A stretch of DNA of 64,000 nt. Origin: Escherichia phage vB_EcoM_E9.1. The stretch is from sequence record PP886230; one strand, given 5' to 3'. Numbering within the stretch: the stretch's first letter is position 1; each line of letters opens with the position of its first letter. This document shows positions 30,655 through 31,923 of the stretch, piece by piece. The position numbers and the translations under genes are program-made. Under the pieces are notes generated by a model. It worked only from the letters and a program-made list of their open reading frames with translations, ran no database searches and was not told the DNA's origin.

Positions 30655-30682
30655 TTGACTAAATAGTTCAGTACTGTATAAT
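30655..30682 (+). promoter_or_regulatory. sigma70-like promoter (conserved module)
   Basis: TTGACTAAATAGTTCAGTACTG-TATAAT upstream of CDS 30714. Confidence 0.6.
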
Positions 30683-30713
30683 GTTTGTATCTTAACTTAT
30701 ATGGCAACTTGAT

Positions 30714-31067
30714 ATGTTTAGTGAATATGAAGAAGCAATAAAACGCAACCTTGAAGATTACAACTTCCAATTTTATATTTGGGATGAACTGATGAGATTG
30801 TGTTTACAGTGGATGGAAAATGGAGAAACTCCTGACCAACGAACTGTTATATTAAACATTTTGTTACATAAAGATCTTAGTTCAATTAATGTTGAAGTTT
30901 CTACTTATGTAGAAGAAGATTATAATCCCTATATTTCATATACTTCACCTGTACCAAAGACAGAAGAAGAATATTTTCAAATGAGTACTGTACAAGAACC
31001 ATTGTTCACTTATGAGTTCTATAAGTACTTGGTTGGTGAATTCAAAAAAATGCGAATTAATTCTTGA
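30714..31067 (+). CDS. EE-x-FFQ family small protein
   Basis: C-terminal ...TEEEYFQMSTVQEPLFTYEFY... Confidence 0.55.
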   Translation: MFSEYEEAIKRNLEDYNFQFYIWDELMRLCLQWMENGETPDQRTVILNILLHKDLSSINVEVSTYVEEDYNPYISYTSPVPKTEEEYFQMSTVQEPLFTYEFYKYLVGEFKKMRINS

Positions 31068-31133
31068 CTAAATAATTCAGTACTGAGGATATTAATATGT
31101 TTAAAGATGAACGTCCAGATTTGTAAAAAGTAC

Positions 31134-31162
31134 TTGACTAAATAGTTCAGTACTGATATAAT
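31134..31162 (+). promoter_or_regulatory. sigma70-like promoter (conserved module)
   Basis: TTGACTAAATAGTTCAGTACTGA-TATAAT, near-identical to the 30655 promoter. Confidence 0.6.
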
Positions 31163-31168
31163 GAATTC

Positions 31169-31510
31169 CACAATCAGACGTATATGGTGTAAGTTACGTC
31201 GATGCAATCCAGAACAAGATCTCTGGTACTCTAGGAAGTGGTGAATGTTAACCTAGACGGGTTTGATAATTGGACGATAGGCAATTATTACTTGACTAGC
31301 AGGTTTAAACTAGAGGTGACTATCCTTCACCAAACTGGAAAACCGGATGGACTTTTATTTAAAAGGGTAAGGCGTGGAAATATGTTTACAGTAGTTGCTT
31401 TTAGTATCCTGTACGCCCCACGTCAAGGTAGCCGAAAGGCAAGTTAAAACGGGTGGTTATAAAGCTGAATTAACAGCGACGTTTAAAAGCGTCACCATCC
31501 ATTTTTTTTT
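31169..31510 (+). ncRNA. candidate structured RNA or leader
   Basis: ~340 nt GC-richer stretch between promoter 31134 and a 9-T run at 31502-31510; only a doubtful 69-aa ORF (31238..31447). Confidence 0.25.
31478..31510 (+). terminator. putative terminator (weak stem, long T-run)
   Basis: GACG-loop-CGTC then ACCATCCA + TTTTTTTTT. Confidence 0.4.
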
Positions 31511-31526
31511 AATTAAAGTTGGTGAT

Positions 31527-31898
31527 ATGAGTGTTAAAGACATTTCAAAGTATGAAGAGTTTCTTAAATCATTTTTGAATTCAGAATTAACGACAGACCA
31601 TACCAATAACTGGTGTCAAGATAATCCAGGAATTCGCATTTTCAATGGATATGGCGAATCATTTCTTATAAATGACGATGAAATTGTTTTTGAATCATTT
31701 GAAGAAATAAAAAGGACAAATAACACTTTACGTGATATAATAAATAGTATAAATGCTCAATACATTACCTTCCAGCTAAGTGCTGATGAAGCTGATGAAT
31801 TCCAGAAACGCACAGTATATGAAAATGTGTTTCCACATGAATTAAATTCTGTGATATTTAAAGTGTTGGAGAAGGTTTTTTCCGAAAATAGTACTTGA
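31527..31898 (+). CDS. EE-x-FFQ family small protein (divergent)
   Basis: ...ADEADEFQKRTVYENVFPHELNSVIFKVL...; start moved to ATG 31527 after the T-run, RBS GGTGA. Confidence 0.5.
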   Translation: MSVKDISKYEEFLKSFLNSELTTDHTNNWCQDNPGIRIFNGYGESFLINDDEIVFESFEEIKRTNNTLRDIINSINAQYITFQLSADEADEFQKRTVYENVFPHELNSVIFKVLEKVFSENST

Positions 31899-31923
31899 CT
31901 AAATAGTTCAGTACTGATAAAAT
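31895..31923 (+). promoter_or_regulatory. sigma70-like promoter (conserved module, weak -10)
   Basis: TTGACTAAATAGTTCAGTACTGA-TAAAAT, just upstream of tRNA-Ser(GCU). Confidence 0.45.

Follow-up and report, generated by a model that had tools for sequence, protein, structure and literature searches.

Near-identical promoter modules as putative shuffling points in the tRNA region of the jumbo phage vB_EcoM_E9.1

The DNA analysed here is a stretch of 64,000 nucleotides from Escherichia phage vB_EcoM_E9.1 (sequence record PP886230), referred to as the window. Between positions 30646 and 31923, it contains four copies, one of them decayed, of a short sequence resembling a sigma-70 promoter, which we call the module. 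The locus is a region of tRNA genes (six calls from 29017 to 34071) and small open reading frames (ORFs). For 30400-32400, 63 phage records match with an identity of 90-99%, and each belongs to a jumbo coliphage of the 121Q/PBECO4 group (genus Asteriusvirus) or to a Salmonella or Klebsiella relative. The PHROG matches of the proteins neighbouring the modules are all of unknown function, and these proteins have no Pfam match.

Module copies and the units they head

The 22-nt core of the module, TTGACTAAATAGTTCAGTACTG, is found without mismatch at 30655-30676 (copy 1), 31134-31155 (copy 3), and 31895-31916 (copy 4), and a further core, TTGACTAAATAATTCAGTACTG, with one mismatch (G12A), is found at 31064-31085 (copy 2), all on the plus strand. 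None of 100 dinucleotide-preserving shuffles yields a match to the core, even with up to three mismatches, which rules out a chance origin of the repeats. A preliminary description of the window had reported three copies identical across the -35 element, the spacer, and the -10 region. The core is indeed exact at all three positions, but the identity does not continue through the -10, and the copy at 31064 had been overlooked.

Copy 1 (30646-30682), with an A-rich upstream tract, has its -35 element TTGACT at 30655-30660, an AGTACT box at 30670-30675, and its -10 element TATAAT at 30677-30682, the spacer being 16 nt long, with CTG directly before the TATAAT. In copies 3 and 4, the spacer is 17 nt long, with CTGA before the -10, and an additional AGTACT box is fused to the -35. 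Copy 3 (31125-31162) has box 1 at 31129-31134, the -35 TTGACT at 31134-31139, box 2 at 31149-31154, a TG at 31154-31155, and the -10 TATAAT at 31157-31162. Copy 4 (31886-31923) has the same layout, with box 1 at 31890-31895, the -35 TTGACT at 31895-31900, box 2 at 31910-31915, and the TG at 31915-31916, whereas its -10 at 31918-31923 is TAAAAT instead of the TATAAT of copies 1 and 3. Copies 3 and 4 are 93% identical across 43 nt, the upstream AAAA(A/T)AGTAC included. Beyond this stretch their flanks are unrelated, as are those of the other copies, and the similarity between copies ends no more than about 10 nt either side of the promoter.

Copies 1, 3, and 4 match the sigma-70 hexamers at 11, 11, and 10 of 12 positions. 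The TGA before the -10 in copies 3 and 4 provides an extended -10, and A-rich UP-like tracts (AAAAAAAGC, AAAAAGTAC, and AAAATAGTAC) are located upstream of the modules, an A-rich upstream region being common to the promoters of the window generally. Judged by the consensus alone, these copies are predicted to be near-consensus early promoters of the sigma-70 type, with activity and start sites predicted on the same basis. Copy 2 (31064-31126) is decayed and has no usable -10. Its core is followed by AGGATATTAATATG, which places a Shine-Dalgarno (SD) sequence (GAGGA, 31085-31089) and a 9-codon ORF (MFKDERPDL, 31097-31126) where the -10 would be, and it reaches 9 of 12 hexamer matches only by using the poor GATATT as the -10, suggesting that it is effectively dead as a promoter. 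A LexA box overlapping AGTACTGTATAAT was considered and rejected by eye, its left half fitting and its right half being missing.

All cargos of the modules lie on the plus strand. Copy 1 heads a 117-aa ORFan (30714-31067; phrog_34619, of unknown function and with no Pfam match), whose stop codon overlaps the -35 of copy 2. Copy 3 is followed by a non-coding stretch of about 340 nt (31166-31510), which is composed of a structured RNA of about 190 nt (part A, 31166-31362) and a second conserved segment (part B, 31366-31510). The 3' end of part B forms a long compound hairpin of about 50 nt (31451-31500) and then a T9 run (31502-31510), together resembling an intrinsic terminator. A 123-aa ORFan (31527-31898; phrog_38341) lies between this putative terminator and copy 4, and copy 4 heads the gene for tRNA-Ser(GCU) (31930-32019). 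The four cargos, namely the 117-aa ORFan, the mini-ORF behind copy 2, the non-coding RNA, and the tRNA, show no mutual similarity.

From the final base of the -10 to the first base of tRNA-Ser(GCU) the distance is 7 nt, and it is the same in 10/10 relatives with the tRNA. By this geometry, copy 4 is predicted to start transcription at the mature 5' end of the tRNA, and copy 3 (start at about 31169) at the conserved 5' end of part A. The predicted leaders of the private tRNA promoters are 0 nt for tRNA-Ser(GCU), in 10 genomes, and about 4 nt for tRNA-Ser(UGA), whose promoter-leader region spans 30103-30119 and whose leader contains AGTACT. A start at or near the mature 5' end would largely spare 5' processing by RNase P.

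Promoters of the form TTGAC-N16-18-TATAAT number about 37 on the plus strand of the window and 2 on the minus strand. This excess matches the description of the early region of the related jumbo phage CBB, with its short hypothetical genes and RpoD-like promoters with a UP-like element (PMC5259590). An alignment of promoters, which the preliminary description had proposed as a check, was run for the window on the -35 and -10 elements. The 34 other strong promoters have unrelated spacers, with at most about 0.3 bit at each spacer position, indicating that the identical spacer belongs to a small module family and not to early promoters generally; a conserved spacer as a general trait of the early promoters of this phage is rejected. 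A genome-wide regulon of the full 22-mer is rejected likewise. BLAST with the 41-nt module finds 3-5 places per Asteriusvirus genome (about 350 kb), all local and in agreement with the copies seen in the tRNA-region loci, and a scan of IMG/VR for the exact 22-mer gave matches only in 121Q itself.

Part A has homologues of 80-93% identity in unannotated gaps within or beside tRNA clusters of other phages, including a T4-like Bragavirus and another Straboviridae phage, a T5-like Novosibvirus (Demerecviridae), and an Alcyoneusvirus (RaK2-like). The homologous loci are L008:18559-18755, from the Klebsiella phage Muenster, L018:1501-1692, L019:1501-1698, L021:301-490, L022:301-492, and L023:291-488, and a 64-nt core is also found in Ishigurovirus. 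The consensus fold of eight sequences has 48 pairs, 9 of them with compensatory changes. Part A has no Rfam match at the gathering score, with noise alone at E<10, and it shows no similarity to T4 rnaC/rnaD, of which it had been considered a homologue. A 69-codon GTG ORF inside part A was rejected as a gene: its substitutions among 11 genomes, read by eye from the alignment and not counted by a tool, are mostly non-synonymous or located in hairpin loops, and TH47 has a 1-nt insertion within it. Part B would be co-transcribed with part A in the window, given the predicted promoters, and is placed under its own module promoter in Muenster and JNE01. The hairpin element of part B occurs three times in the tRNA region of Muenster (L008, about 18498, 18884, and 20137).

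Among the neighbours of the modules are five paralogous mini-genes of about 54 aa (phrog_10970), all starting with MTHEEWM, at 28555, 28813, 29332, 30319, and 30480. Their copy number differs among relatives, with two or three tandem copies before module copy 1. The sequence 30213-30291 is borderline tRNA-like (Rfam 29.3 bits against a gathering score of 29; no ARAGORN call). The orthologous position is annotated as tRNA-Leu(taa) in 121Q and as tRNA-Arg(tct) in G17, JP4, and ph0011, and the sequence is probably a decaying or swapped tRNA.

Joints, breakpoints, and spacer alleles among relatives

The region was compared with that of 13 relatives, and every module was listed with its flanks. The module connects the end of the 117-aa ORFan (...gcgaattaattc) with five different cargos. 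The joint leads to the SD sequence and mini-ORF in seven genomes (the window, PBECO4, 121Q, JP4, fEgEco12, Turkey3, and CMSTMSU), directly to the RNA in TH47, Ec-M-J, and G17, to a tRNA-Gly in A4 and, with an extra 58-aa ORF, in ELP-22, to a 79-aa ORF (orf79) in ph0011, and to RNA part B alone in JNE01. The end of the 123-aa ORFan (...gaaaatagtac) is joined either to tRNA-Ser(GCU) or, in 121Q and G17, to another type-II tRNA. Turkey3, JP4, and ph0011 have kept both type-II tRNAs, with an HNH endonuclease gene between two modules, and seen against these genomes, 121Q and G17 look like deletions between two module copies. In JNE01, a unit of tRNA-Gly, mini-ORF, and module is relocated in front of tRNA-Ser(UGA).

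The BLAST homology to the window stops at 31085/31086, the last base of the copy 2 core, in 7 of the 13 genomes and picks up again at 31126-31133 in four of those seven. Copy 2 corresponds to the G12A variant of the left copy of ELP-22, combined with the SD sequence and mini-ORF found downstream of the right copy of ELP-22, and it looks like a chimeric joint from recombination between two modules that are separate in ELP-22. The junction at copy 1 is invariant in all 13 relatives. Turkey3, JP4, and ph0011 carry an insertion at 32164/32165 that adds a fifth copy of the module, an HNH homing-endonuclease gene, and an extra type-II tRNA. The insertion ends away from any module there, and the window does not have it (relative locus L011:3130-3790; also L012 and L013).

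The promoter of tRNA-Ser(GCU) occurs as five alleles between invariant flanks, in genomes that are about 95% identical. These are the module itself, TGGACA-GTAGTATTAAGTATTGA-TATAAT, which has no AGTACT, TGGACA-ATAGTTTTCAGTACTGA-TATAAT, TGGACA-TTAGTATTGAGTACTGA-TATAAT, and TTGACT-GTAGTATTCAGTACTGA-TAAAAT. Several of them are mosaics, for example TGGACA with ...TTTTCAGTACTGA or TTGACT with GTAGTATTCAGTACTGA, as expected from short conversion tracts. In ELP-22 and CMSTMSU, this promoter has AGTATTGA instead. The existence of five alleles suggests that the middle of the spacer is free to vary and that its identity among the copies of the window reflects recent copying or conversion, not functional necessity.

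Muenster has a homogenised family of its own, TTGAACAAAAAGTTCAGTACTG(A)TATAAT, with five copies in the tRNA region. Two of these modules have CAATAATG where the others have CAGTACTG, and one sits precisely at the boundary of RNA parts A and B, two segments that adjoin each other in the window. Muenster also contains a tRNA-Met(CAT)-like gene (L008:20256-20570) with a module-type promoter upstream, which is unannotated in the record and has an apparent intron-like insertion of about 230 nt just after the anticodon.

AGTACT boxes in promoters and genomes

The preliminary description had called the AGTACT motif enriched, which agrees with our counts. The window has 166 sites, compared with 17.6 expected from shuffles or 21.5 from base composition (7.7-fold). 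AGTACT is found in non-coding DNA as well as within ORFs, which hold 143 of the 166 sites, in all three codon frames. The enrichment is 8-fold in Muenster and 8.9-fold and 5.2-fold in a metabolic and a structural region of 121Q, respectively, and reaches about 20-fold in parts of RaK2 and related contigs. The neighbouring positions are symmetric, (tt)C-AGTACT-G(aa), with C at -1 in 41% and G at +1 in 48% of the sites. In contrast to this excess, GGTACC and CGTACG do not occur at all, and at least 12 G+C-containing 6-bp palindromes, among them GGATCC, GTCGAC, GCATGC, TGGCCA, and TGCGCA, are absent from the window where 1-5 sites would be expected, a deficit that is typical of restriction-site avoidance and contrasts sharply with the AGTACT excess.

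Within promoters, the box takes two fixed positions that are 20 bp apart, one fused to the -35 (AGTAC-TTGAC) and the other abutting the -10 ((C)AGTACTG-TATAAT). Copies 3 and 4 have this two-box layout, as do single promoters, with other mid-spacers, of the phages fHe-Yen9-04 (Yersinia), Munch (Salmonella), and Hallingskeid (Erwinia). An IMG/VR scan with the two-box pattern gave 39 matches, 8 of them in RaK2; 18 of the 39 have a -10-like hexamer by a strict flag, and most do on reading by eye. In RaK2 (227-238 kb), 24 of the 72 AGTACT sites lie directly against a -10-like hexamer, and in 12 pairs the distance between the sites is exactly 20 bp. When the spacings from six dense loci are pooled, they peak at 20 bp, with 30 pairs, and 21 bp, with 10 pairs. 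The window itself has AGTACTG immediately before TATAAT in three more, unrelated promoters (48700, 53014, and 63343), where about 0.3 would be expected from the motif density. The boxes appear to be a clade-wide promoter signature that is older than the local copying and independent of it. Our search of the literature on AGTACT or on promoters in Asteriusvirus and RaK2 found nothing relevant.

The IMG/VR matches also include two unrelated families of viral contigs from metagenomes, each with a single AGTAC-TTGAC...AGTACTG promoter and a genome AGTACT ratio of only 1-3. In the first (L029, L034, L040, L045, L046, L051, and L052), the boxes are followed by a consensus TATAAT, and in the second (L030, L036, L038, L039, L042, L043, L047, and L049), by a weaker (A/G)ATAAC; one of the two has an inner palindrome, CAGCG-T-CGCTG. 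In RaK2, AGTACT is also found at the apex of hairpins in 5' untranslated regions (gggaatcAGTACTgattccc).

The palindromic nature of AGTACT allows two direct copies to pair. The predicted fold of copies 3 and 4 is AGUACU-U-GACU-AAAU-AGUU-C-AGUACU, with -10.3 and -9.1 kcal/mol and z scores of -3.4 and -2.8, respectively, and copy 1 has no significant fold (z +0.6). For comparison, the hairpins at 54775 and 58018, taken as positive controls, reach -14 and -18 kcal/mol with z about -5. Most of the equivalents in RaK2, Munch, and Hallingskeid fold no better than shuffled sequences (z +0.5 to -1.1), which weakens the hairpin as a general reason for the two boxes, and no U-run follows in copies 1, 3, and 4 or in these equivalents. 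The module stem-loop thus seems to be modest and lineage-specific.

One idea, which we put forward only tentatively and consider possible but not probable, is that AGTACT is the recognition site of an undescribed clade-wide system in RaK2-like jumbo phages, based on a dimeric DNA-binding protein or on DNA modification, which marks the genome and, through boxes bracketing the -35, switches a class of early and stable-RNA promoters. If true, the three identical spacers would be the local and recently copied part of a regulatory code that spans the genome. A resemblance to the SlmA site was set aside as a remote idea: the core is shared with the SlmA site GTGAGTACTCAC, and the flank preference is C/G here versus G/C there.

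Origin of the shared spacer and relation to known promoter cassettes

Our preferred explanation, to which we assign a probability of about 0.7, is that the modules are portable sigma-70 early-promoter cassettes whose identity is kept by recombination and conversion, and which serve as crossover points for cassette shuffling. The sequence anatomy, the unrelated flanks, the combinations at the joints, the breakpoints, and the alleles are read directly from the genomes; how the modules recombine, and what the AGTACT boxes may do, we infer. Homologous recombination and short-patch gene conversion among the copies would recently have copied or homogenised the promoter alone, with each promoter heading its own short transcription unit, be it an ORFan, a non-coding RNA, or a tRNA. 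Crossovers within the identical patches of 22-43 bp would then insert, delete, and swap cargo cassettes between phages, and copy 2 would be a decayed joint left from such an exchange. The AGTACT pair would represent a separate, older layer, which in copies 3 and 4 may close a modest stem-loop around the -35. The preliminary description had offered either a recent duplication of promoter-gene units or a bound regulator. Recent copying agrees with our explanation, but the copied unit is only the promoter of about 22-43 nt, its cargos and flanks being unrelated. A regulator is neither shown nor needed for the identity, although the boxes with their 20-bp phasing make such a factor worth considering for the box part of the spacer and for no other part.

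Several observations weigh against this explanation. Copies 1 and 3 are unchanged in 13/13 genomes, which purifying selection on the spacer would predict likewise, and the local divergence of 1-5% is too low to tell selection from homogenisation. Since the AGTACT boxes are conserved across genera where other spacer positions differ, selection probably acts on part of the spacer, which copying alone would not explain. Half of the structural differences in the region end away from the modules, as seen for the RNA deletion in G17, the HNH insertion at 32164, and a tRNA-Ser/tRNA-Met deletion. The stem-loop is weak and has no U-run, making the terminator half of a classical promoter-early stem-loop (PeSL) doubtful. 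Our literature searches found no transcriptome or 5'-end data for Asteriusvirus or Alcyoneusvirus.

Selection would be the main force if the spacer were an operator, where a phage or host dimeric protein binds the dyad (C)AGTACT(G) at the two boxes 20 bp apart and occludes or activates the promoter. The palindromic box with its symmetric neighbours would suit such a protein, and so would its fixed positions in promoters, with the spacing peaks and the RaK2 pairs described above, its presence in the three unrelated promoters of the window, and the recurrence of AAAAAGTAC-TTGAC...(C)AGTACTG-TATAAT with differing mid-spacers in Yersinia, Salmonella, Erwinia, and Klebsiella jumbo phages; the mostly non-significant hairpin potential furthermore indicates that the sequence is conserved and not the pairing. 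However, an operator of this kind covers 6-8 nt per box and explains neither the mid-spacer AAATAGTT nor the whole 22-mer, and it is at odds with the natural tRNA-Ser alleles of ELP-22 and CMSTMSU and with the two Muenster modules that carry CAATAATG. Among the 34 other strong promoters of the window, 31 do not have the box, and AGTACT is nearly as enriched in coding DNA (all frames) and structural-gene regions, so it is not specific to promoters, and the cognate protein remains hypothetical. We therefore regard the operator as an unlikely source of the identity.

The repeats bound cassettes in the fashion of an integron, and HNH genes are found between modules in Turkey3, JP4, and ph0011 and also in the Muenster tRNA region, as would be expected if the module were the target of a site-specific system, that is, an integron-like attachment site or a homing-endonuclease site that moves cassettes. 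The crossover points, however, vary within and beyond the module: G12A is kept in some joints, ph0011 shares 19 nt beyond the -10, and the mosaic alleles switch inside the spacer. Such variable crossovers point to homology-driven exchange and not to a fixed cleavage point, and no integrase is located beside the region in the annotations inspected, leaving a site-specific system very improbable. Less credible still is that whole promoter-gene units were recently duplicated in tandem, as segments, the promoter identity being a by-product. Tandem paralogues do occur locally, as with the MTHEEWM ORFs, but the similarity between modules ends about 10 nt from the promoter, and the four cargos are unrelated. 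The preliminary description had itself named a segmental duplication of the flanking sequence as a competing account of the spacer identity, and this is refuted by the unrelated flanks.

The portable cassettes that we propose are most easily compared with the PeSL cassettes of T4-type phages, for which modular shuffling has been shown experimentally (Arbiol et al. 2010, PMC2839356; Comeau et al. 2014, PMC4122927). Both are repeated near-consensus sigma-70 early promoters with an A/T-rich upstream tract, located before ORFans in hyperplastic regions, here as four copies within 1.3 kb of a tRNA and ORFan region. In both, indels and replacements between close relatives are bounded by the repeats and leave chimeric single copies. 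The stem is lineage-specific and may enclose the -35, being AGTACT...AGTACT here and G(n)-loop-C(n), A3-4G3-loop-C3T3-4, or AGNA-loop-TCNT in the PeSLs. The phage described here is a RaK2-like jumbo myovirus, which is outside the scope of the two studies, and it has 3-5 copies instead of about 50, which are nearly identical across the whole spacer. In addition, the modules contain AGTACT boxes, their cargos are mainly stable RNAs with a predicted start at the mature 5' end, and their stem-loop is weak (-9 to -10 kcal/mol), missing in copy 1, and without a U-run, so that a terminator function is doubtful.

A second promoter family of the window, aaaGGTTGACTtcgGTCAGCCtttttt(g)tTATAAT (54788-54817, 58031-58060, 58214-58242, and 60617-60646), has a G+C-rich hairpin with a T-run (terminator) overlapping the -35 of a consensus promoter, with z about -5. 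A matching element of CBB was published as a terminator only (Torf39). This family appears to be a classical promoter-terminator composite of the PeSL type and fits the PeSL description better than the modules do.

The modules are also similar to the RpoD-like early promoters of CBB (PMC5259590), which have a UP-like tract and are clustered among short hypothetical ORFs of the same direction. The CBB promoter lists that we retrieved have no AGTACT in the spacers.

Early promoters of T4 and T5 are used by the unmodified host sigma-70 holoenzyme and have an A-rich UP-like tract, a -35 of the TTGAC type, and a TG-extended -10; their consensus descriptions are not known to include fixed AGTACT boxes or a complete identity of the spacer. 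Operator-in-promoter designs with two dyad sites flanking the -35 are known from classical repressor operators and from SPO1 TF1 at early promoters. The modules resemble this design in their identical palindromic hexamers, which are separated by two helical turns, lie on either side of the -35, and reach the -10, a geometry that would suit a dimer of dimers that occludes RNA polymerase. They differ from it in that the hexamer is 5-20-fold enriched across coding DNA, natural alleles without the box exist, and the protein is hypothetical.

If our explanation holds, promoter-cassette shuffling, described before in T4-type phages, would extend to the RaK2/121Q jumbo phages. The modules might also be of use in phage engineering, as natural landing pads and, by prediction, as strong portable promoters. 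The analysis isolates the question of why AGTACT is found at two fixed promoter positions and yet is massively over-represented throughout the genomes. For the biology of these phages, it suggests that tRNAs and a structured RNA each have a private near-consensus promoter with a predicted start at the mature 5' end, and it provides a sequence-level account of how their tRNA and ORFan regions may be rebuilt.

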